Origin: a virus
Lineage: Duplodnaviria > Heunggongvirae > Uroviricota > Caudoviricetes
Virus record (IMG/VR): IMGVR_UViG_2681813269_000008
DNA: 10,773 nt
Strand: one strand, 5' to 3'
The stretch's first letter is position 1, and every line of letters starts with the position of its first letter. The notes beneath the pieces are model-generated. The model saw only the letters and a list, made by a program, of their open reading frames with translations, was not told the origin of the DNA and searched no databases. Position numbers and translations under genes: made by a program. Of this stretch, positions 1 through 10,773 are shown piece by piece.

Positions 1-253
1 GTCTGGCGACAGTGGCAAGGTCTTTATTCAGGAGGGCTTTGCATTCTGCTTCGGTATACGTTTTACCGAGCATGATGTCTTTTCCGGTGTGTCCGTGACA
101 TACAGTCCATACACCAATGATATCTTTGTATGGTATGTAGCTGACACCTTCCAGACCATCGTTACCACCTGGGCCAGTGATTAACACAGATGCTATAGCA
201 ACAGCCCCACCACCAATAGCAGCTGCAACAGCCTTGCGTAATGATGGCGACAT
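1..253 (-). CDS. SAR endolysin (phage 21 R-like lysozyme), N-terminal part only; gene continues beyond the window start
   Basis: Minus-strand translation from the ATG at 253-251 is open to position 1: [84 protein letters not shown]. The Gly/Ala-rich weakly hydrophobic N-terminus is a typical signal-anchor-release domain, followed by a lysozyme-like segment. The start overlaps the holin stop (TAATG). Not in the supplied track because it is truncated. Confidence 0.8.
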
Positions 254-468
254 TATTCACCTCTCGCAGCCTTACGCTTGTCTTCTCTTATTTTGAAATA
301 CAGATTTGTCAGATAAGTCAGAAGCCCCAGAAGCAGACTTCCCAGCACACCAATCGCAGCCCACTGTGATGGACTGACCTGATCCAACCACTGCAAAAAC
401 CAGTAGCCGGCACTGCCGGCGGAGGTGCCGTAGGCAATGCCTGTTGATATTTTTTCCATCTGATACAT
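253..468 (-). CDS. Class II pinholin (phage 21 S21-like) with dual-start motif
   Basis: 71-aa [74 protein letters not shown]. It has two predicted transmembrane segments and a charged C-terminus, and closely resembles S21 as I recall it. Met1 and Met4 give the antiholin/holin dual start. It sits directly upstream of the SAR endolysin. Confidence 0.85.
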
Positions 469-502
469 ATCCCGCCCCCCGACAGACCTGTGCTATCGGA
501 AA

Positions 503-534
503 GAAAAAAGGCCATCAGCAAAACTCTGATGGCC
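503..534 (-). terminator. Predicted rho-independent terminator (minus strand) just upstream of the holin gene
   Basis: Perfect 9-bp stem GGCCATCAG (510-518) / CTGATGGCC (526-534) with a 7-nt loop. On the minus strand the hairpin is followed by a U-run (complement of GAAAAAA at 503-509). Confidence 0.5.
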
Positions 535-579
535 TGAATCACCTTTACCAATATTGTATGAAAAAACACGCACGACTAA

Positions 580-608
580 TTGACAATAATTTTCATTTCC
601 ATTAAAAA
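580..608 (+). promoter_or_regulatory. Candidate sigma70 promoter on the plus strand (TTGACA, 17-nt spacer, TAAAAA)
   Basis: Consensus -35 TTGACA at 580-585, a 17-nt spacer, and a weak -10 TAAAAA at 603-608 in an AT-rich context. It points toward the terminator hairpin at 644-710. Prediction only. Confidence 0.25.
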
Positions 609-643
609 AGATCGCGTAGCATTCTTAATTCATGAGGAACTTT

Positions 644-710
644 ACCCGCCAGCAATCTGAGTAGCGAAAGCTGTTCATCCCCAATGTTTTTGCTGGCGGG
701 TCCTTTTTTC
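644..710 (+). terminator. Long-stem hairpin plus T-run; intrinsic terminator and/or 3' end of a candidate small RNA (plus strand)
   Basis: Perfect 11-bp arms CCCGCCAGCAA (645-655) / TTGCTGGCGGG (690-700) enclose a 34-nt loop with a possible internal GAAA tetraloop stem, followed by TTTTTT (704-709). A second weaker hairpin and T-run lies at about 722-757. Confidence 0.45.
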
Positions 711-1148
711 TACGGTCCTCCTCCCCGGAGGGGGGCATTTCATTATTTTTCTAATCGTTACTGGTGAGAAGGCGGAAGAAAAAGCCAGTTCTTCGCCCCT
801 AAATAACAGCATGATTCCAGTCCATGCAAAATCTGATTTCCAGCTCACACATACCGAGCGCTGTACAAAAAACCGCCAGCCAAGGCAGTTAAGAGTGTGT
901 TCCCGGGGTTTGCTTAGAATATTTTGTAAGTTGTCCGAAGAGATATTTACAACACCAGAATGATGAATCATCAGTCCCCTGCCAGAGGTTCACTACGTAA
1001 CCTGACCGACAATGCACCATTCTGGTGCTGAAAAAAGAGCACTGGAACTGCAACAAAACAACATCACAGAACAGGAGATGGTAAGGAGTCAGACATTCCC
1101 ACACAATATTGTGTCAGTGCAAATAACAACCTTCGTCTCAAATCTCGC

Positions 1149-1223
<75 letters not shown>

Positions 1224-1226
1224 ATA

Positions 1227-1302
<76 letters not shown>

Positions 1303-1304
1303 GC

Positions 1305-1381
1305 TGGCCCACCACCGAGGACTCGAACCTCGCACCGTCAACTTAGAAGGTTGATGCTCTATCCGGATGAGCTAGTGGTGG
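1305..1381 (-). tRNA. tRNA-Arg (anticodon TCT)
   Basis: Minus-strand CCACCACTAGCTCATCCGGATAGAGCATCAACCTTCTAAGTTGACGGTGCGAGGTTCGAGTCCTCGGTGGTGGGCCA. Acceptor stem CCACCAC/GTGGTGG, anticodon stem TCAAC/GTTGA, loop CTTCTAA, encoded CCA. Confidence 0.88.
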
Positions 1382-1382
1382 T

Positions 1383-1459
1383 TGGTGGCCCTTGCTGGAC
1401 TTGAACCAGCGACCTGGCGATTATGAGTCGCTCGCTCTGACCAACTGAGCTAAAGGGCC
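1383..1459 (-). tRNA. tRNA with CAT anticodon, most likely tRNA-Ile2 (lysidine-modified), ileX/ileZ-like
   Basis: Minus-strand GGCCCTTTAGCTCAGTTGGTCAGAGCGAGCGACTCATAATCGCCAGGTCGCTGGTTCAAGTCCAGCAAGGGCCACCA. Anticodon loop CTCATAA. The body resembles E. coli tRNA-Ile2 rather than initiator or elongator tRNA-Met, as I recall them. Confidence 0.85.
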
Positions 1460-1547
1460 GGAGGCAGAATAATAACCATATGTCATCACATCTGCAAACT
1501 CATCTGACCACCAGCACGTTTAACGTCCTGTGCCGTTTTTCAGGTAT

Positions 1548-1573
1548 AAAAAAACCCGCTCATCGGCGGGTTT
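1548..1573 (-). terminator. Predicted rho-independent terminator (minus strand) downstream of the ORF6N-like gene
   Basis: Stem CCCGC (1555-1559) / GCGGG (1566-1570) with a 6-nt loop. On the minus strand it is followed by a 7-U run (complement of the A-run at 1548-1554). Confidence 0.6.
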
Positions 1574-1648
1574 AAGCTGTGTGGCGTAGTAACCACTCTT
1601 AACAGGATATTCAACTTTTTACGATCGTAAAGTTTTCGGAAAAAATTT

Positions 1649-2218
1649 TTAAAACCGCATCAACCGCTCCACCAGTTGCTCTTTACGGGCAACGATCCAC
1701 CCGTGTTGCTCCAGATAAAATTTAAACCGTTCCAGAGTACATACCATCGCATCGGCGGGTACCTTTTCCGTGAACTCAACCTGACCGTGTTTATCGAAGT
1801 GGCTCAGTAATGCGCATCCATCATTTTCGATAGATGTGTTTTGTGCCGCTGGTGGCTGTTTCTGGTTGAAATAACAGTCTTCCAGTTTTTCGAACACTTC
1901 CCACGCCTGATCGGTTTCGAGCATTTTGGCGTGACGGGCTGCGCCACGTTCTGTCCAGAGGATGAGGGAGCGAACGTTACGGGCAATTTTCACAGAAACT
2001 CTTAAAGAGTTTTCGTTCTTCAACTCTCGTAACGCATCACCTTCTATCAGGAAAAAATGTTTACCTTCTATAAACCGTTCTTTGTTTCGATTGAAATTGT
2101 TTGTCAAACGCTGGCGCTCTGTTCCGTACAAATCAGCCAGCAGCTCTGTTGTCATGACAGGAAGATGGTTATGCGTAAGTGACGGGAGTTTTTCAATAGA
2201 CGTGCGATTCATAGACAT
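1649..2218 (-). CDS. ORF6N/KilA-N-like phage DNA-binding (antirepressor-like) protein; start uncertain
   Basis: The open frame runs 1649-2410 (253 aa). The conserved region starts near MSMNRTSIEKLPSLTHNHLPVMTTELLADLYGTERQRLTNNFNRNKERFIEGKHFFLIEGDALRELK...WTERGAARHAKMLETDQAWEVFEKL, which resembles the ORF6N domain by recall. An AAAGGA Shine-Dalgarno sits before the ATG pair at 2218/2212. The 64-codon upstream extension has no protein-like character. Confidence 0.6.
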   Translation of the reverse strand: MSMNRTSIEKLPSLTHNHLPVMTTELLADLYGTERQRLTNNFNRNKERFIEGKHFFLIEGDALRELKNENSLRVSVKIARNVRSLILWTERGAARHAKMLETDQAWEVFEKLEDCYFNQKQPPAAQNTSIENDGCALLSHFDKHGQVEFTEKVPADAMVCTLERFKFYLEQHGWIVARKEQLVERLMRF

Positions 2219-2573
2219 GTCCTTTCGAATATTTTGATTTACCCCTTTTGAGAGGGTGACCGGGCGCTCAAAACCGTCGAAAGTCGGCGGGCGTATTTCC
2301 ATTGCTGGTATTGTATTAGCCGCACACCCGGTCATAAACCAAGAATTCTGGACACAAAAAAACCACATGGCTATCGGGTGTGGATACCGCTTTCGAGGTG
2401 TTTTGAGCACCGCGGGGAAATGTAAACTGCAAACCTGAAACTGTCAACACCGTCAGGTTCCAATCATCGGGTGGTGAGACGCACAGGGTTGGAACTACCG
2501 GGAAACCGACCGGCGAGCTTTTCAGCTCCCCCATGCGCCCCACCATAATTCAGATGTGCGCGTGCATACGACA

Positions 2574-2597
2574 ATAAAAAACACGCTCGCGGCGTGT
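2574..2597 (-). terminator. tR'-like intrinsic terminator downstream of the late promoter (minus strand)
   Basis: Minus-strand ACACGC-CGCGA-GCGTGT hairpin (6-bp stem) followed by TTTTTTAT. It lies about 55-80 nt downstream of the predicted PR' start, as in lambdoid late leaders. Confidence 0.55.
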
Positions 2598-2658
2598 GTC
2601 TGTCGCGGTCTCTATCCGGGGTTCCAATCCCGACGCCAGATTTTGCTGGCGCGTGAGG

Positions 2659-2688
2659 AATATAGCCCCGGACAATGTGTCTGGTCAA
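2659..2688 (-). promoter_or_regulatory. PR'-like late promoter immediately downstream of Q
   Basis: Minus-strand TTGACC (-35, plus 2683-2688), 18-nt spacer, TATATT (-10, plus 2659-2664). It begins 5 bp after the Q stop codon, the canonical lambdoid position for PR'. Confidence 0.55.
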
Positions 2689-2692
2689 GCAC

Positions 2693-3079
2693 CTACATAA
2701 TTCGTTCTACGTATCTGTCCATCTCCAGCCGGATATCAAGCATCATCAACATGCCATCAATAACCCCTTCCGCTTTCTGCAGGCGCTTGCCAATACAGGT
2801 ATCCGAACACCCATGTTTCCGTGCCAGACTCATAAAAGTCATTCCACCTACGTAATAATCCACCAGCAAATCGTGCAAATCCTGATTTTTCTTGTTCAAC
2901 CGGGCCATACAGCCACAAATTATCATTGCATCATCATCAGAACACTGAGGGCGTGATTTCACTTTCGACGGAATTAACCCTTTAAAACCAGCAGCGATCG
3001 ACGCCCAGGATACATCTTCATGAGTGTTTGCAGCCCAAGCCCCCCACCGTTCCATAACCTGCTGAATATCACGCGCCAT
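2693..3079 (-). CDS. Late antiterminator Q (phage antitermination Q family, QuuD/phage 82-like)
   Basis: [121 protein letters not shown] closely resembles QuuD-type Q proteins as I recall them. The track ORF extends to 3100, but the ATG at 3079 has a good AGGTGA Shine-Dalgarno and overlaps the rusA stop. Confidence 0.85.
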
Positions 3080-3440
3080 CGTTATCACCTGTGATTTCAT
3101 AAATCTTCACGCCCAGTCGCCCACCAGGAACGAGCTGACCGCGCACAATATTGATTTCATCAAACTGCTCGTCGTCTATGAGTAGTCCGGCATGCGTCAG
3201 CGCATCCAGTGGTGCTTTCAGGATATTGTCCAGGTCACGACGGCGCTTATCCGGTGGCTCTGCAATAATCTTTATCGCCAGCCTTCCGGACAGGTTTAAT
3301 TTCAGCCGCTGCTGGCGAACAATTAGCGTCACATCACGGCGATAACGCTCACCAACTTTTGATACAAAATATGTGCTGCCACGACGTCGCCAGTAAGTAT
3401 TCACCGTCGGCGGATAAGGTAAAATAAACTCATGGCGCAT
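3069..3440 (-). CDS. rusA: Holliday junction resolvase RusA
   Basis: 123 aa: [21 protein letters not shown]...[31 protein letters not shown]...[11 protein letters not shown]. This matches the RusA hallmark motifs (PPS/TxN, DxRRRDLDN, D/E acidic cluster). The start overlaps the upstream stop (TGATG). Confidence 0.9.
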
Positions 3441-3697
3441 CAGCGCAGCACCTCCTGCACCATTTTTTCAAACTTTCCAACTTTGGTTTCCAGCTCTGCC
3501 ACACAATCAACGAGCTCATCCACCGCTTTTTGTGCGCGATGTTTCGCCTGCATCAGTTCCCTGAGCGCTGGCACCATATCCCGACGAATGGCATCTTTTG
3601 TTACACCTGTTTTTTCCAGTTGTTCCGCCTGTCGCAACATTTCCTGCGCGTGTTTACGCAATTGTTCAGAGGTAAAAGTCATTGTCTGGTTGTTCAA
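3440..3697 (-). CDS. Small hypothetical phage protein, predicted coiled-coil, unknown function
   Basis: 85-codon frame between the helicase and rusA. The 5'-most start is TTG, overlapping the helicase stop; an internal ATG lies at 3682. Charged, heptad-like sequence (EQLRKHAQEMLRQAEQLEK...). No family recognised. Confidence 0.5.
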   Translation of the reverse strand: MNNQTMTFTSEQLRKHAQEMLRQAEQLEKTGVTKDAIRRDMVPALRELMQAKHRAQKAVDELVDCVAELETKVGKFEKMVQEVLR

Positions 3698-5085
3698 AAG
3701 AAACGCTCCATCTTACTGCTGTCGGTACGTGTATTGCTGTATCTGCGCGGCTGGGGCTGCCGCATTGGGGTGGAAAGAACCTGTGCGCTTTCCTGGTCCA
3801 CAGGCAGAAAATGTCCGTTATAAAAACGCCGGTAAATCGTCCCCAGAGAACCGTTACGTTGTTTCGTGATATTAATTTCTGCTATGCCTGTAGCCTGTGT
3901 ATCCGGGTTGTACACTTCATCCCTGTAAAGCATCAGAATGATGTCTGCATCCGCCTCTATTTCTCCGGAATTTTTCAGGTCTGAGTTCATGGGACGTTTA
4001 TTGGGTCTGGACTCCACACCGCGGGAGAGCTGGCTCAGCGCAATCAACGGAAAACCACCGGATTTTGCCAGGCCTTTAAGCCCCTTTGAGATTTCACCCA
4101 CGGCAAGGTCATGACGCCCCGTGGTTCGGGTTTTTATCAGCCCGAGATAATCAACCACCACCAGCGCCGTTTCCGGATGTTTAATCAGATGGTGTTTCGT
4201 TGTTGCGCATATCTCATCAATGGTCAGGTTCGCCTGGTCCACCATCCAGATATTGCGCCCGGTCATCCGCCCCACCCCTTGTGAGAAACGCGCCCAGTCT
4301 TCATCTTCAAAGTGAGCCACAGATTTCAGGCGTGATACTGGCATCCCTCCAGCCGCAGACACCATACGTTCACCAATCTGGATGTTCGCCATCTCCATGG
4401 TGAACAGAAGCACACCATGCCCCTGCTCAGTCACCTTGTCGATGATGTCCAGCGCAAGTTCGGTTTTCCCCATCGAAGGACGGGCGGCAATGAATACCAG
4501 GTCTCCGGGCTCCATACCGCCTGTTTTTGCGTCCAGTTCATCAATACCGGTCATCAACGTCCTGGATTTCTCCAGCCCCTGATTCCGGCATTCAACACGC
4601 TCAACCACTTCCGGAAGCACATCATCAATATGTACCGGCTGAATGACGCCCTTTCCTGTCGACAGTGTGACCATCATGTTCTGCGCATCCTTCAGGGCAT
4701 CTTCAGCTGCTTCACAGGTATGCGCATCACGTAATTTCTGCAGCGCCTCATTCAGTGTTTTTTCTGCATCGCGCAGTGCGGCATTGCGCCGCAACGCTGC
4801 AACATAGTGCTCCAGTGAAGACTTCACCCAGGTTTTACGCCCGGTATCAGTAATCACCGGGGCAAGTTCCGGCATCTCATTACACAACAGCACGGGGTCA
4901 ATCACTCCTGAAACACGGGCCTGTCTGCAGATGCCTGTGTAGATATCCCGATACGCTCGTACAGAAAAAATGTCCGCCGGTAGTGTGATCAGAATATCCA
5001 TCACTTCATGATCTGCCCCACGCAGAAAGAATGCGCCAATGACAGCGCCTTCCAGGTCATCATTACGCCAGACTGGTGTTGTCAT
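3694..5085 (-). CDS. Phage replicative DNA helicase, DnaB family
   Basis: DnaB N-terminal-like region ([13 protein letters not shown]...) and RecA-like C-terminal domain with Walker [10 protein letters not shown], Walker B VVVDYLGL and [20 protein letters not shown]. The ATG at 5085 has a GAGGTG Shine-Dalgarno 9 nt upstream. The track ORF reaching 5145 begins at a GTG inside IS-derived sequence and is an artefactual extension. Confidence 0.9.
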
Positions 5086-5140
5086 GCAGCCACACCTCTG
5101 ATACAAGAACGGTAGCTGGGCCAGTTGAACGACAACCAGT

Positions 5141-5255
5141 ATCACTTAACCCATTACTGGCTTGCTGCCGTAGATATTCCCGTGGCGAGCGATAACCCAG
5201 TGCACTATGCGGATGCCATTCGTTATAATGCTCGAACGCCTCTGCAAGGTTCTTT
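5141..5255 (-). mobile_element. IS2-like internal fragment (3' end of the transposase gene) lacking the terminal inverted repeat
   Basis: The minus strand encodes ...[38 protein letters not shown], matching the C-terminus of the IS2 transposase as I recall it. The same sequence recurs at 10675-10773, where it is preceded by the 32-bp IS2-like terminus that is absent here. Confidence 0.6.
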
Positions 5256-5522
5256 AAAGCCGAAGCTGTCAGAACGGTTCTTGAAAATCAACTTTCGATC
5301 AGTGAAGGCGCTTCCCGATTATCTCTTCCTGAAGGCACTTTAGGACAATGGGTTACCGCCGCCAGAAAAGGGCTCGGTACTCCTGGTTCCCGCACGGTGG
5401 CTGAACTGGAATCTGAAATTCTGCAACTGCGTAAGGCGTTAAATGAAGCTCGCCTTGAGCGAGATATATTAAAAAAAGCAACAGCGTATTTTGCACAGGA
5501 GTCGCTGAAAAATACGCGTTAA
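5256..5522 (+). pseudogene. IS3-family orfA, N-terminally truncated (no start codon)
   Basis: Frame reads ...[89 protein letters not shown], a helix-turn-helix plus leucine-zipper OrfA. An in-frame TAA lies just upstream and there is no ATG. Confidence 0.7.
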
Positions 5523-5557
5523 TCGAACAATGGCGACAACAATTTCCCATTGAAGCG

Positions 5558-6376
5558 ATGTGTCAGGTATTTGGTGTATCCAGGAGCGGTTATTACAACT
5601 GGGTACAGCATGAACCCTCAGACAGAAAACAAAGTGATGAGCGGCTAAAACTGGAGATTAAGGTGGCACATATCCGCACTCGCGAAACATATGGAACCCG
5701 GCGGCTCCAGACGGAGCTGGCAGAGAATGGCATCATCGTTGGTCGTGACCGACTGGCACGTCTTCGTAAGGAGCTAAGGCTACGCTGTAAGCAGAAACGC
5801 AAGTTCAGAGCGACTACGAACTCGAACCACAATCTGCCAGTTGCGCCAAATCTGCTGAACCAGACGTTCGCTCCTACAGCACCAAATCAGGTCTGGGTGG
5901 CGGACCTGACGTATGTTGCCACACAGGAGGGATGGTTGTACCTCGCTGGCATCAAAGATGTTTATACGTGCGAAATTGTCGGCTACGCCATGGGAGAGCG
6001 CATGACAAAAGAGCTGACAGGTAAAGCCCTGTTTATGGCGCTCAGGAGCCAGCGCCCACCTGCCGGGCTAATCCACCACTCTGATCGAGGTTCACAGTAC
6101 TGCGCATACGATTACCGGGTCATACAGGAGCAGTCTGGTCTGAAAACATCAATGTCGCGTAAAGGTAACTGTTACGACAACGCTCCGATGGAAAGCTTCT
6201 GGGGAACGCTGAAAAATGAGAGCCTGAGCCACTATCGTTTTAATAACCGGGATGAAGCCATCTCAGTAATACGGGAATACATTGAGATTTTCTACAATCG
6301 TCAGCGTCGTCACTCTCGTCTGGGGAATATCTCCCCGGCAGCCTTCAGGGAAAAATATCATCAGATGGCTGCTTAA
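5558..6376 (+). CDS. IS3-family transposase OrfB (DDE integrase catalytic domain)
   Basis: 272 aa with the DDE triad context WVADLTY, HHSDRGSQY and CYDNAPMESFWGTLK. The frame is open from the slippery site at 5471, consistent with an OrfAB frameshift fusion. Because orfA is truncated, a functional fusion is unlikely. Confidence 0.85.
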   Translation: MCQVFGVSRSGYYNWVQHEPSDRKQSDERLKLEIKVAHIRTRETYGTRRLQTELAENGIIVGRDRLARLRKELRLRCKQKRKFRATTNSNHNLPVAPNLLNQTFAPTAPNQVWVADLTYVATQEGWLYLAGIKDVYTCEIVGYAMGERMTKELTGKALFMALRSQRPPAGLIHHSDRGSQYCAYDYRVIQEQSGLKTSMSRKGNCYDNAPMESFWGTLKNESLSHYRFNNRDEAISVIREYIEIFYNRQRRHSRLGNISPAAFREKYHQMAA

Positions 6377-6469
6377 AAAAAGAACAAATGGTAGTGTCCG
6401 CTATTGCCAGTACACCTCACACTCTATCCAACAAACCACCCACAGTTAATCGGAATAAAAGCAGAGTGC

Positions 6470-6595
6470 TTATGAATGATCGCACGCCCGAAGGTTAGTA
6501 TTTCTGCACAGCAATTTTGCAAAAAAAGGCGATCATTCATAACTTAAACGTCTTTCAGTCACTCCGGGATTTCCCATCATCGCAGACTGAAAGAC
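6470..6595. repeat. Two adjacent perfect inverted repeats (14-bp arms and 11-bp arms) in the copy-2 flank
   Basis: TTATGAATGATCGC (6470-6483) pairs with GCGATCATTCATAA (6529-6542) across a 45-nt spacer. GTCTTTCAGTC (6550-6560) pairs with GACTGAAAGAC (6585-6595) across a 24-nt spacer. The second ends 6 bp from the tRNA-Gly 3' end. Confidence 0.6.
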
Positions 6596-6601
6596 TCTGA
6601 C

Positions 6602-6676
<75 letters not shown>

Positions 6677-6679
6677 ATA

Positions 6680-6755
<76 letters not shown>

Positions 6756-6757
6756 GC

Positions 6758-6834
6758 TGGCCCACCACCGAGGACTCGAACCTCGCACCGTCAACTTAGA
6801 AGGTTGATGCTCTATCCGGATGAGCTAGTGGTGG
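6758..6834 (-). tRNA. tRNA-Arg (anticodon TCT), copy 2
   Basis: Identical to 1305-1381 (offset 5453). Confidence 0.88.
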
Positions 6835-6835
6835 T

Positions 6836-6912
6836 TGGTGGCCCTTGCTGGACTTGAACCAGCGACCTGGCGATTATGAGTCGCTCGCTCTGACCAACTG
6901 AGCTAAAGGGCC
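6836..6912 (-). tRNA. tRNA-Ile2-like (anticodon CAT), copy 2
   Basis: Identical to 1383-1459 (offset 5453). Confidence 0.85.
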
Positions 6913-7000
6913 GGAGGCAGAATAATAACCATATGTCATCACATCTGCAAACTCATCTGACCACCAGCACGTTTAACGTCCTGTGCCGTTTTTCAGGTAT

Positions 7001-7026
7001 AAAAAAACCCGCTCATCGGCGGGTTT
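7001..7026 (-). terminator. Predicted rho-independent terminator, copy 2
   Basis: Identical to 1548-1573 (offset 5453). Confidence 0.6.
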
Positions 7027-7101
7027 AAGCTGTGTGGCGTAGTAACCACTCTTAACAGGATATTCAACTTTTTACGATCGTAAAGTTTTCGGAAAAAATT
7101 T

Positions 7102-7671
7102 TTAAAACCGCATCAACCGCTCCACCAGTTGCTCTTTACGGGCAACGATCCACCCGTGTTGCTCCAGATAAAATTTAAACCGTTCCAGAGTACATACCAT
7201 CGCATCGGCGGGTACCTTTTCCGTGAACTCAACCTGACCGTGTTTATCGAAGTGGCTCAGTAATGCGCATCCATCATTTTCGATAGATGTGTTTTGTGCC
7301 GCTGGTGGCTGTTTCTGGTTGAAATAACAGTCTTCCAGTTTTTCGAACACTTCCCACGCCTGATCGGTTTCGAGCATTTTGGCGTGACGGGCTGCGCCAC
7401 GTTCTGTCCAGAGGATGAGGGAGCGAACGTTACGGGCAATTTTCACAGAAACTCTTAAAGAGTTTTCGTTCTTCAACTCTCGTAACGCATCACCTTCTAT
7501 CAGGAAAAAATGTTTACCTTCTATAAACCGTTCTTTGTTTCGATTGAAATTGTTTGTCAAACGCTGGCGCTCTGTTCCGTACAAATCAGCCAGCAGCTCT
7601 GTTGTCATGACAGGAAGATGGTTATGCGTAAGTGACGGGAGTTTTTCAATAGACGTGCGATTCATAGACAT
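7102..7671 (-). CDS. ORF6N/KilA-N-like phage DNA-binding (antirepressor-like) protein, copy 2
   Basis: Identical to 1649-2218; the track ORF 7102-7863 is the same extended frame. Confidence 0.6.
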   Translation of the reverse strand: MSMNRTSIEKLPSLTHNHLPVMTTELLADLYGTERQRLTNNFNRNKERFIEGKHFFLIEGDALRELKNENSLRVSVKIARNVRSLILWTERGAARHAKMLETDQAWEVFEKLEDCYFNQKQPPAAQNTSIENDGCALLSHFDKHGQVEFTEKVPADAMVCTLERFKFYLEQHGWIVARKEQLVERLMRF

Positions 7672-8026
7672 GTCCTTTCGAATATTTTGATTTACCCCTT
7701 TTGAGAGGGTGACCGGGCGCTCAAAACCGTCGAAAGTCGGCGGGCGTATTTCCATTGCTGGTATTGTATTAGCCGCACACCCGGTCATAAACCAAGAATT
7801 CTGGACACAAAAAAACCACATGGCTATCGGGTGTGGATACCGCTTTCGAGGTGTTTTGAGCACCGCGGGGAAATGTAAACTGCAAACCTGAAACTGTCAA
7901 CACCGTCAGGTTCCAATCATCGGGTGGTGAGACGCACAGGGTTGGAACTACCGGGAAACCGACCGGCGAGCTTTTCAGCTCCCCCATGCGCCCCACCATA
8001 ATTCAGATGTGCGCGTGCATACGACA

Positions 8027-8050
8027 ATAAAAAACACGCTCGCGGCGTGT
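8027..8050 (-). terminator. tR'-like intrinsic terminator, copy 2
   Basis: Identical to 2574-2597 (offset 5453). Confidence 0.55.
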
Positions 8051-8111
8051 GTCTGTCGCGGTCTCTATCCGGGGTTCCAATCCCGACGCCAGATTTTGCT
8101 GGCGCGTGAGG

Positions 8112-8141
8112 AATATAGCCCCGGACAATGTGTCTGGTCAA
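8112..8141 (-). promoter_or_regulatory. PR'-like late promoter, copy 2
   Basis: Identical to 2659-2688 (offset 5453). Confidence 0.55.
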
Positions 8142-8145
8142 GCAC

Positions 8146-8532
8146 CTACATAATTCGTTCTACGTATCTGTCCATCTCCAGCCGGATATCAAGCATCATC
8201 AACATGCCATCAATAACCCCTTCCGCTTTCTGCAGGCGCTTGCCAATACAGGTATCCGAACACCCATGTTTCCGTGCCAGACTCATAAAAGTCATTCCAC
8301 CTACGTAATAATCCACCAGCAAATCGTGCAAATCCTGATTTTTCTTGTTCAACCGGGCCATACAGCCACAAATTATCATTGCATCATCATCAGAACACTG
8401 AGGGCGTGATTTCACTTTCGACGGAATTAACCCTTTAAAACCAGCAGCGATCGACGCCCAGGATACATCTTCATGAGTGTTTGCAGCCCAAGCCCCCCAC
8501 CGTTCCATAACCTGCTGAATATCACGCGCCAT
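8146..8532 (-). CDS. Late antiterminator Q, copy 2
   Basis: Identical to 2693-3079; track ORF 8146-8553. Confidence 0.85.
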
Positions 8533-8893
8533 CGTTATCACCTGTGATTTCATAAATCTTCACGCCCAGTCGCCCACCAGGAACGAGCTGACCGCGCACA
8601 ATATTGATTTCATCAAACTGCTCGTCGTCTATGAGTAGTCCGGCATGCGTCAGCGCATCCAGTGGTGCTTTCAGGATATTGTCCAGGTCACGACGGCGCT
8701 TATCCGGTGGCTCTGCAATAATCTTTATCGCCAGCCTTCCGGACAGGTTTAATTTCAGCCGCTGCTGGCGAACAATTAGCGTCACATCACGGCGATAACG
8801 CTCACCAACTTTTGATACAAAATATGTGCTGCCACGACGTCGCCAGTAAGTATTCACCGTCGGCGGATAAGGTAAAATAAACTCATGGCGCAT
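8522..8893 (-). CDS. rusA: Holliday junction resolvase RusA, copy 2
   Basis: Identical to 3069-3440. Confidence 0.9.
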
Positions 8894-9150
8894 CAGCGCA
8901 GCACCTCCTGCACCATTTTTTCAAACTTTCCAACTTTGGTTTCCAGCTCTGCCACACAATCAACGAGCTCATCCACCGCTTTTTGTGCGCGATGTTTCGC
9001 CTGCATCAGTTCCCTGAGCGCTGGCACCATATCCCGACGAATGGCATCTTTTGTTACACCTGTTTTTTCCAGTTGTTCCGCCTGTCGCAACATTTCCTGC
9101 GCGTGTTTACGCAATTGTTCAGAGGTAAAAGTCATTGTCTGGTTGTTCAA
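8893..9150 (-). CDS. Small hypothetical coiled-coil phage protein, copy 2
   Basis: Identical to 3440-3697. Confidence 0.5.
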   Translation of the reverse strand: MNNQTMTFTSEQLRKHAQEMLRQAEQLEKTGVTKDAIRRDMVPALRELMQAKHRAQKAVDELVDCVAELETKVGKFEKMVQEVLR

Positions 9151-10538
9151 AAGAAACGCTCCATCTTACTGCTGTCGGTACGTGTATTGCTGTATCTGCG
9201 CGGCTGGGGCTGCCGCATTGGGGTGGAAAGAACCTGTGCGCTTTCCTGGTCCACAGGCAGAAAATGTCCGTTATAAAAACGCCGGTAAATCGTCCCCAGA
9301 GAACCGTTACGTTGTTTCGTGATATTAATTTCTGCTATGCCTGTAGCCTGTGTATCCGGGTTGTACACTTCATCCCTGTAAAGCATCAGAATGATGTCTG
9401 CATCCGCCTCTATTTCTCCGGAATTTTTCAGGTCTGAGTTCATGGGACGTTTATTGGGTCTGGACTCCACACCGCGGGAGAGCTGGCTCAGCGCAATCAA
9501 CGGAAAACCACCGGATTTTGCCAGGCCTTTAAGCCCCTTTGAGATTTCACCCACGGCAAGGTCATGACGCCCCGTGGTTCGGGTTTTTATCAGCCCGAGA
9601 TAATCAACCACCACCAGCGCCGTTTCCGGATGTTTAATCAGATGGTGTTTCGTTGTTGCGCATATCTCATCAATGGTCAGGTTCGCCTGGTCCACCATCC
9701 AGATATTGCGCCCGGTCATCCGCCCCACCCCTTGTGAGAAACGCGCCCAGTCTTCATCTTCAAAGTGAGCCACAGATTTCAGGCGTGATACTGGCATCCC
9801 TCCAGCCGCAGACACCATACGTTCACCAATCTGGATGTTCGCCATCTCCATGGTGAACAGAAGCACACCATGCCCCTGCTCAGTCACCTTGTCGATGATG
9901 TCCAGCGCAAGTTCGGTTTTCCCCATCGAAGGACGGGCGGCAATGAATACCAGGTCTCCGGGCTCCATACCGCCTGTTTTTGCGTCCAGTTCATCAATAC
10001 CGGTCATCAACGTCCTGGATTTCTCCAGCCCCTGATTCCGGCATTCAACACGCTCAACCACTTCCGGAAGCACATCATCAATATGTACCGGCTGAATGAC
10101 GCCCTTTCCTGTCGACAGTGTGACCATCATGTTCTGCGCATCCTTCAGGGCATCTTCAGCTGCTTCACAGGTATGCGCATCACGTAATTTCTGCAGCGCC
10201 TCATTCAGTGTTTTTTCTGCATCGCGCAGTGCGGCATTGCGCCGCAACGCTGCAACATAGTGCTCCAGTGAAGACTTCACCCAGGTTTTACGCCCGGTAT
10301 CAGTAATCACCGGGGCAAGTTCCGGCATCTCATTACACAACAGCACGGGGTCAATCACTCCTGAAACACGGGCCTGTCTGCAGATGCCTGTGTAGATATC
10401 CCGATACGCTCGTACAGAAAAAATGTCCGCCGGTAGTGTGATCAGAATATCCATCACTTCATGATCTGCCCCACGCAGAAAGAATGCGCCAATGACAGCG
10501 CCTTCCAGGTCATCATTACGCCAGACTGGTGTTGTCAT
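9147..10538 (-). CDS. Phage replicative DNA helicase, DnaB family, copy 2
   Basis: Identical to 3694-5085. The 510-aa track ORF (to 10679) is an artefactual in-frame extension across 49 bp of flank and the IS2-like terminus. Confidence 0.9.
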   Translation of the reverse strand: MTTPVWRNDDLEGAVIGAFFLRGADHEVMDILITLPADIFSVRAYRDIYTGICRQARVSGVIDPVLLCNEMPELAPVITDTGRKTWVKSSLEHYVAALRRNAALRDAEKTLNEALQKLRDAHTCEAAEDALKDAQNMMVTLSTGKGVIQPVHIDDVLPEVVERVECRNQGLEKSRTLMTGIDELDAKTGGMEPGDLVFIAARPSMGKTELALDIIDKVTEQGHGVLLFTMEMANIQIGERMVSAAGGMPVSRLKSVAHFEDEDWARFSQGVGRMTGRNIWMVDQANLTIDEICATTKHHLIKHPETALVVVDYLGLIKTRTTGRHDLAVGEISKGLKGLAKSGGFPLIALSQLSRGVESRPNKRPMNSDLKNSGEIEADADIILMLYRDEVYNPDTQATGIAEINITKQRNGSLGTIYRRFYNGHFLPVDQESAQVLSTPMRQPQPRRYSNTRTDSSKMERFF

Positions 10539-10642
10539 GCAGCCACACCTCTGATACAAGAACGGTAGCTGGGCCAGTTGAACGACAACCAGTTGCGCCC
10601 CCCGTCTGTGATCCTGTCGGCAATGCGGGGGCTGATGAACGC
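10535..10642 (-). pseudogene. 3' remnant of the gene upstream of the helicase (probable replication initiator or helicase loader), cut by the IS2-like insertion
   Basis: Minus-strand frame ...[35 protein letters not shown] ends in a TGA that overlaps the helicase ATG (ATGA coupling). The frame is open right up to the IS2-like terminus at 10643. No family assignment is possible from 35 codons. Confidence 0.35.
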
Positions 10643-10773
10643 TGGATTTGCCCCTATATTTCCAGACACCTGTTATCACTTAACCCATTACTGGCTTGCT
10701 GCCGTAGATATTCCCGTGGCGAGCGATAACCCAGTGCACTATGCGGATGCCATTCGTTATAATGCTCGAACGC
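10643..10773 (-). mobile_element. IS2-like element, right terminus and 3' end of the transposase gene; runs off the window end
   Basis: TGGATTTGCCCCTATATTTCCAGACACCTGTTATCACTTAACCCATTAC... matches the reverse complement of the IS2 right inverted repeat as I recall it, with about one mismatch. The minus strand encodes the transposase C-terminus ...[10 protein letters not shown]. Confidence 0.6.

Follow-up and report, generated by a model that had tools for sequence, protein, structure and literature searches.

Probable IS2-mediated truncation of a DnaC-like helicase loader gene in a duplicated lambdoid prophage remnant of Shigella sonnei type

Results

Organisation of the duplicated segment

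The window (the whole 10,773-nt stretch of DNA that was analysed) very probably represents a decayed lambdoid prophage of the S. sonnei type in which IS2 cut the helicase loader gene, the upstream part of the replication module was lost, the segment that remained was duplicated, and one of the two copies was trimmed. Self-comparison of the window revealed two 3993-bp copies in direct repeat (copy 1, 1148-5140; copy 2, 6601-10593), which are 100% identical. Their genes, all encoded by the minus strand, comprise four tRNA genes, the genes for ORF6N, Q and RusA, an 85-aa ORF, and the gene for a 463-aa DnaB-like helicase. The helicase genes are located at 3694-5085 in copy 1 and at 9147-10538 in copy 2 (both minus strand); the rest of copy 1 (1148-3697, minus strand) comprises the tRNA cluster (Gly, Thr, Arg and Ile(CAU)), ORF6N, the Q antiterminator, RusA and the 85-aa ORF, and the rest of copy 2 (6601-9150, minus strand) has an identical gene set. 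A P21-type holin gene and a 688-bp spacer lie to the left of copy 1, and the region is the early-right/nin/late-promoter part of a lambdoid prophage.

The four phage-borne tRNA genes (1149-1459 and 6602-6912) are located downstream of Q, with the ORF6N gene on one side and the holin gene on the other, as is the case in Stx-converting phages. They correspond to Gly-UCC, Thr-UGU, Arg-UCU and one CAU tRNA, the last of which was called Met by ARAGORN but is Ile in the RefSeq annotation of related prophages. The left boundary of the duplication is the exact 3' end of tRNA-Gly, and its right boundary is the junction of an 80-bp deletion described below. The holin-to-tRNA spacers of the two copies are unrelated, with the mosaic breakpoint exactly at the tRNA-Gly end: spacer A (460-1147, 688 bp) is 100% identical in prophages of the human E. 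coli strains CFSAN029787, RMDEC364 and VL46, and shows 99-100% identity to five further human E. coli prophages; spacer B (6420-6600) matches VL40-type prophages. A weak tblastn match to the phiP27 L16 'transcriptional regulator' (36% over 81 aa; window 2431-2664, minus strand) was detected between Q and ORF6N, overlapping a 74-aa ORF of odd composition; it may be due to chance, or may reflect a conserved non-coding late-promoter/terminator region.

The helicase is intact and identical in both copies. It matches PHROG 19 (E 3.6e-115) and, at residues 177-422 and over the full length of the domain, PF03796 (DnaB_C RecA-like domain; E 7.8e-73), and it scored 22.3 bits against the DnaB N-terminal domain (PF00772), for which the cut-off is 23. 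Compared with L19 of phiP27, the protein is 97% identical, gap-free and over its full length, and an identical protein is present in many assemblies (thousands). The Shine-Dalgarno sequence AGAGGT is located 8 nt upstream of the ATG, within the remnant of the preceding gene.

The gene upstream of the helicase as a DnaC-like loader

The preliminary description of this DNA had proposed that only the last 35 codons of the gene upstream of the helicase survive in copy 2, and fewer in copy 1. Translation agreed exactly with the former: copy 2 keeps the last 35 codons and a TGA stop (10535-10642, minus strand). The comparison between copies likewise agreed with the latter, as copy 1 (5082-5140, minus strand) keeps the last 18 codons (5085-5138) and the stop (5082-5084), with the identity to copy 2 stopping at 5140. 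In both copies the stop of the remnant overlaps the start of the helicase as ATGA (5082-5085; 10535-10538).

The intact form of this gene, whose identification in related phages had been suggested, was found by tblastn of the remnant. The 35-aa remnant matches the C-terminus of an 'ATP-binding protein' of E. coli VL40 (residues 258-292 of the 292-aa WP_000988184.1; 34/35, 97%; E 3e-16) and residues 218-252 of phiP27 L18 (32/35, 91%; E 2e-15), the latter annotated as 'DnaC-like helicase loader'; by itself it also matches PHROG 50, 'DnaC-like helicase loader' (E 5e-6). The resemblance is far beyond chance. The DNA identity to phiP27 (94%) spans the helicase and ends precisely at 10642, where the Stx-phage homology ends too.

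The intact homologues match PF01695 and PHROG 50, and include an AAA+ domain of the IstB_IS21/DnaA type (residues 140-256) with the Walker A motif GSCGTGKN. The residues kept in the window (258-292 in copy 2, 275-292 in copy 1) are located beyond the IstB_IS21 match and do not include the Walker A motif. There was no AAA+ ATPase core with Walker A and B motifs in the window; the remnant is a gene fragment, not a member protein. On the basis of homology, the lost gene is assigned as a DnaC/IstB-like AAA+ helicase loader. With nothing left but the tail past the IstB_IS21 match, and with Walker A missing, the remnant can have kept no loader activity and would be without function.

In the intact relatives, phiP27 and VL40, the next gene upstream of the loader encodes an initiator (PHROG 270), which in phiP27 (L17) carries an HTH_36 domain. 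The native order of the module, as deduced from these relatives, is initiator, loader and helicase, of which the window retains the helicase alone. No homologue of the phiP27 L17 or VL40 initiator was detected in the window by tblastn, and nothing of the loader ATPase domain, the initiator or the early promoter region is left within it. The earlier proposal that the helicase has lost a coupled partner, presumably an initiator or a loader, gained support in both respects: the partner shows PHROG 50/PF01695 loader homology, and the initiator (PHROG 270) is gone as well.

IS2 junctions and the 80-bp deletion

IS2-like sequence was present beyond both remnants, as previously described. The remnant of copy 2 directly adjoins the right end of an IS2 variant at 10643, with the sequence TGGATTTGCCCCTATATTTCCAGACA...; this end (10643-10773, minus strand) has an intact terminal inverted repeat and encodes the C-terminus of the OrfB transposase, is co-directional with the helicase and runs off the window. 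Beyond the remnant of copy 1 there is an internal 115-bp piece of IS2 (5141-5255, minus strand) without the terminal 31 bp. Compared with copy 2, 80 bp are missing from copy 1 (49 bp of the remnant and the 31 bp of the IS2 tip), with a 1-bp overlap.

The 115-bp piece matches the IS2 next to the S. sonnei helicase at 100% identity, whereas a different IS2 from that genome shows 94.8% identity to it. Because the IS2 piece in copy 1 is the variant found in copy 2, the copy 1 junction is derived from a junction of the copy 2 type, and the sequence comparison argues for one IS2 event, then duplication, then a small deletion in copy 1. The earlier statement that the partner gene was destroyed in both copies holds as far as the gene is truncated in both, but it would be one inherited IS2 event plus the 80-bp deletion of copy 1, and not two events, that produced the two remnants.

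Over 10643-10773, the IS2 sequence shows 100% identity to the terminal part of a 1330-bp element that is complete in S. sonnei; that element in turn is 99.9% identical to elements annotated as 'IS3 family transposase'. Copies carried by ~290-kb plasmids from human E. coli strains likewise share 99.9% identity with the variant. The IS2 alleles of Shigella and EIEC were reported to form a distinct subpopulation, and the invasion plasmid pINV was proposed as their source (PMC7373316); read together with that work, the ~290-kb plasmid matches suggest that the IS2 described here may be a pINV-type variant.

Shigella sonnei loci beyond IS2

Positions 1-5140 and 6601-10773 of the window are 100% identical to a cryptic prophage remnant of S. 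sonnei, including the junction between the loader remnant and IS2. Ten loci with the exact helicase were examined, among them that of HE616528.1 (~3.06-3.08 Mb), identified as S. sonnei 53G in PMC5447701, and each of them has a single copy. This S. sonnei single copy corresponds to window 1-5140, followed by the 35-codon remnant and by the complete 1330-bp IS2. The window itself ends inside IS2, and the region past 10773 was deduced from the S. sonnei genomes holding one copy.

No loader N-terminus or initiator was detected by tblastn within 10 kb beyond IS2 in the nine S. sonnei chromosomes with the identical junction. Beyond IS2 these carry a truncated 459-aa AIDA-like ORF, followed by a gene with a DUF5508 domain and several copies of IS1. 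The IS2 flanks in one S. sonnei locus (L003; 8460-8581 and 9890-9900) are GTTGC on one side versus GCGTT on the other, without a 5-bp target duplication, and these differing flanks point to rearrangement after the insertion of IS2. In S. sonnei, the two genes brought together by IS2 are truncated and unrelated to each other, which is the outcome expected of IS-mediated deletion or inter-IS recombination. At its other end, the S. sonnei remnant is interrupted within the portal gene by an IS4-family element, and the whole S. sonnei element is a cryptic fragment.

IS600, spacer B and the junctions between the copies

The internal IS2 piece is followed by an IS600 (5256-6419, plus strand, antisense to the helicase genes) without the first ~100 nt, which include the left inverted repeat and the start of orfA. 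The part that starts at ~nt 100 and extends to the right end shares 99.7% identity with the annotated IS600, and the element is not complete. Next to it lies spacer B (6420-6600, 181 bp), the holin-to-tRNA spacer of a related lambdoid prophage, which starts with CAC; this is the 3-bp target repeat of an IS600 insertion that is intact in both the IMG/VR contig L016 and E. coli FDAARGOS_943. The same IS600 site with the CAC repeat (window 6417-6422; L016 ~8520-8530) was observed in E. coli FDAARGOS_943 (L028 8965-10290) as well as in five contigs of IMG/VR, and this recurring site between holin and tRNA genes marks an ancestral insertion common to the related prophage family. The junction at 5255/5256 is a blunt illegitimate join of internal IS2 to internal IS600 (~nt 100), neither side of which is a transposition end.

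Exact-pattern scans gave no match to the copy 1 junction (5140/5141) in the genome, viral and metagenome contig collections, to the copy 2 junction in the genome contigs, or to the IS2/IS600 junction (5255/5256) in the viral or metagenome contigs; a megablast search of complete E. coli genomes with 5060-5330 gave no record that spanned the junctions. Protein look-ups of the junction-spanning ORFs (72, 483, 38 and 36 aa) returned no record, and that of the 41-aa truncated IS600 orfA returned unrelated IS600 sites only, from other Shigella-type chromosomes. In a plasmid match (H50), IS600 and IS2 pieces are close to each other in a different arrangement. The IMG/VR contig L013, considered as a second truncated-IS600 junction, was discarded, as N at the join corresponds to a scaffold gap. 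The collections searched contained neither the two-copy arrangement nor the junctions that separate the copies, and the arrangement has no independent support. The order IS600, spacer B, copy and IS2 is independently present in the IMG/VR contigs L014 and L015, and the order holin, spacer A and copy is present in S. sonnei.

Transcription and translational coupling of the helicase genes

The scan for sigma-70-like promoters upstream of both helicases revealed none, including between IS2 and the helicase of copy 2; the sole match (6688-6661) was inside a tRNA gene. The C-terminus of the IS2 transposase is encoded on the strand of helicase copy 2, and since both are co-directional, any transcript would most likely arise by read-through from the weak IS2 promoter; this helicase would be transcribable only in this way. 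The dependence on read-through anticipated in the preliminary description is geometrically possible for copy 2, given the position of the OrfB C-terminus on the helicase strand. Copy 1 lacks an IS2 end, and no IS upstream of it is co-directional, the adjacent IS600 being antisense; its helicase would be reachable only by minus-strand read-through from further upstream, for instance from the Q/late region of copy 2 across the tRNAs and the antisense IS600.

The right ends of IS2 can supply an outward -35 for fusion promoters (PMC9330008; PMC3299598). A hybrid promoter of this kind was considered; inspection by eye of the flank (GCGTTCAT) revealed no good -10 at a spacing of 16-18 bp from the assumed position of the -35, and a weak IS2 hybrid promoter under the threshold of the scan is possible. 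A 44-codon hybrid ORF (10535-10669, minus strand) starts with a GTG at 10669 in the IS2 terminal repeat, continues through the remnant and ends at the ATGA overlap, and could in principle preserve translational coupling if transcribed.

Discussion

The data are consistent with a history in which IS2 would have interrupted the early-right operon (initiator, loader, helicase) within the loader gene, of which 35 C-terminal codons were spared. Deletion or rearrangement associated with IS2 would then have removed the loader ATPase domain and the initiator, together with the presumed origin, the immunity region and the early promoter; an IS2-mediated inversion could have carried the missing 5' part of the operon to another place in the chromosome. 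The segment that remained, with the tRNA cluster at one end and the IS2 junction at the other, would have been duplicated later, and the 80-bp deletion in copy 1 would then have taken the IS2 tip and 17 more codons, with the leftover IS2 joined to the 5'-truncated IS600. From what is known of DnaC-family loaders and lambdoid replication, an element in which the initiator, the origin and the loader are missing cannot start its own replication, and the prophage described here would be unable to do so.

The preliminary description had itself named a simple IS2 insertion as an alternative. In that case the remainder of the loader gene would lie, with the initiator, intact just past IS2, and the module would be interrupted rather than orphaned. 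The window stops within IS2 and leaves the far side out of view, which would accommodate such an arrangement; the S. sonnei chromosomes, however, did not support it, as tblastn of the 10 kb past IS2 was negative for the loader N-terminus and for the initiator in all nine, the truncated 459-aa AIDA-like ORF occupies that side, and the flanks are unequal (GTTGC vs GCGTT), making this explanation very improbable. Two independent insertions of IS2, at different sites of the loader gene in the two copies, might be imagined from the unequal lengths of the remnants (35 vs 18 codons), but can hardly be credited: the copy 1 junction is not a transposition end, since the terminal 31 bp of IS2 are absent; the IS2 piece is 100% identical to the copy 2 variant and 94.8% identical to another IS2, in copies that are themselves 100% identical over 3993 bp; and a single 80-bp deletion with a 1-bp overlap explains the entire difference. 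We also regard it as unlikely that misassembly of an IS-rich genome created the two-copy arrangement, or at any rate the region of the copy 1 junction (5140-5256), and that only one truncated module is real. The absence of the internal junctions from the genome, viral and metagenome contigs and the complete E. coli genomes searched, the single copy in all the S. sonnei chromosomes examined, and the presence of two blunt or near-blunt illegitimate junctions inside 115 bp argue for an artefact; the occurrence of IS600, spacer B, copy 2 and IS2 in L014 and L015, and of holin, spacer A and copy in S. sonnei, indicates that both flanks are real configurations, and illegitimate deletions next to IS elements are common in Shigella. 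The two-copy form may be a recent real structure or an assembly artefact, and the conclusion about the loader stands either way. Recombination between the 4-kb repeats could have turned the two-copy form into the single-copy form of S. sonnei, or the change could have gone the opposite way; a perfect 4-kb duplication with unusual junctions is relevant chiefly to assembly quality and to recent structural variation.

It could also be argued that the retention and duplication of the orphan helicase reflect a present role for the host or for another mobile element, through loading by the host DnaC or in support of a satellite: the ORF is intact and 97% identical to that of phiP27, the Shine-Dalgarno sequence is retained, and the protein is identical in thousands of assemblies. 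We consider this highly unlikely. S. sonnei is a young clonal lineage, and since the chromosomes examined carry essentially identical copies of the locus, the identity across assemblies says nothing about selection; moreover, the promoter scan was negative, and the genes neighbouring the remnant are equally intact. There is likewise only a very slight chance that the duplicated helicase is expressed and used, for example by Q-antiterminated late transcription from copy 2 into copy 1, with loading by the host DnaC or by the loader of another element; if this were true, it would be a domesticated prophage helicase and not debris. Under the preferred history of IS2 truncation and decay, the helicase should be annotated as part of a cryptic, replication-incompetent prophage remnant, and the 35- and 18-codon stretches belong in the annotation as pseudogene fragments of a DnaC-like loader.

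The closest system with an intact loader considered here is the Stx2e phage phiP27 (NC_003356), in which L17 (initiator), L18 (DnaC-like loader) and L19 (helicase) are present. The window shares with it the helicase (97% protein and 94% DNA identity), the last 35 codons of L18, the overlapping stop and start codons and the downstream 85-aa ORF; it differs from it in the absence of L18 residues 1-217 and of L17, with IS2 in their place, and, past the 85-aa ORF, in having RusA, a different Q, ORF6N and the cluster of four tRNA genes. Compared with the single-copy loci of the S. sonnei 53G type, the window has a second copy and, between the two, the IS2 fragment, the truncated IS600 and spacer B.

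The expansion of IS1, IS2, IS4, IS600 and IS911, together with gene loss, has been described for Shigella (Hawkey et al. 2020; PMC7373316), and the window, with an IS2-truncated gene and IS600 nearby, is no different in kind from the IS-mediated pseudogenisation and genome reduction reported there. The locus is a case of ordinary, already-described IS-driven prophage decay; it adds one more example driven by IS2 and IS600 in Shigella-type genomes, and matters little past its correct annotation. The prophage of E. coli FDAARGOS_943 (NZ_CP065615.1) resembles the window in its gene order, in the IS600 within the holin-tRNA spacer and in an N-terminally truncated loader; it differs in that ISSso6 (IS110-like) is found by the truncation instead of IS2, 190 codons are left, and the Q/nin region is another one. 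The loader gene of this prophage (L028 13110-15028) was truncated independently, with ISSso6 alongside.
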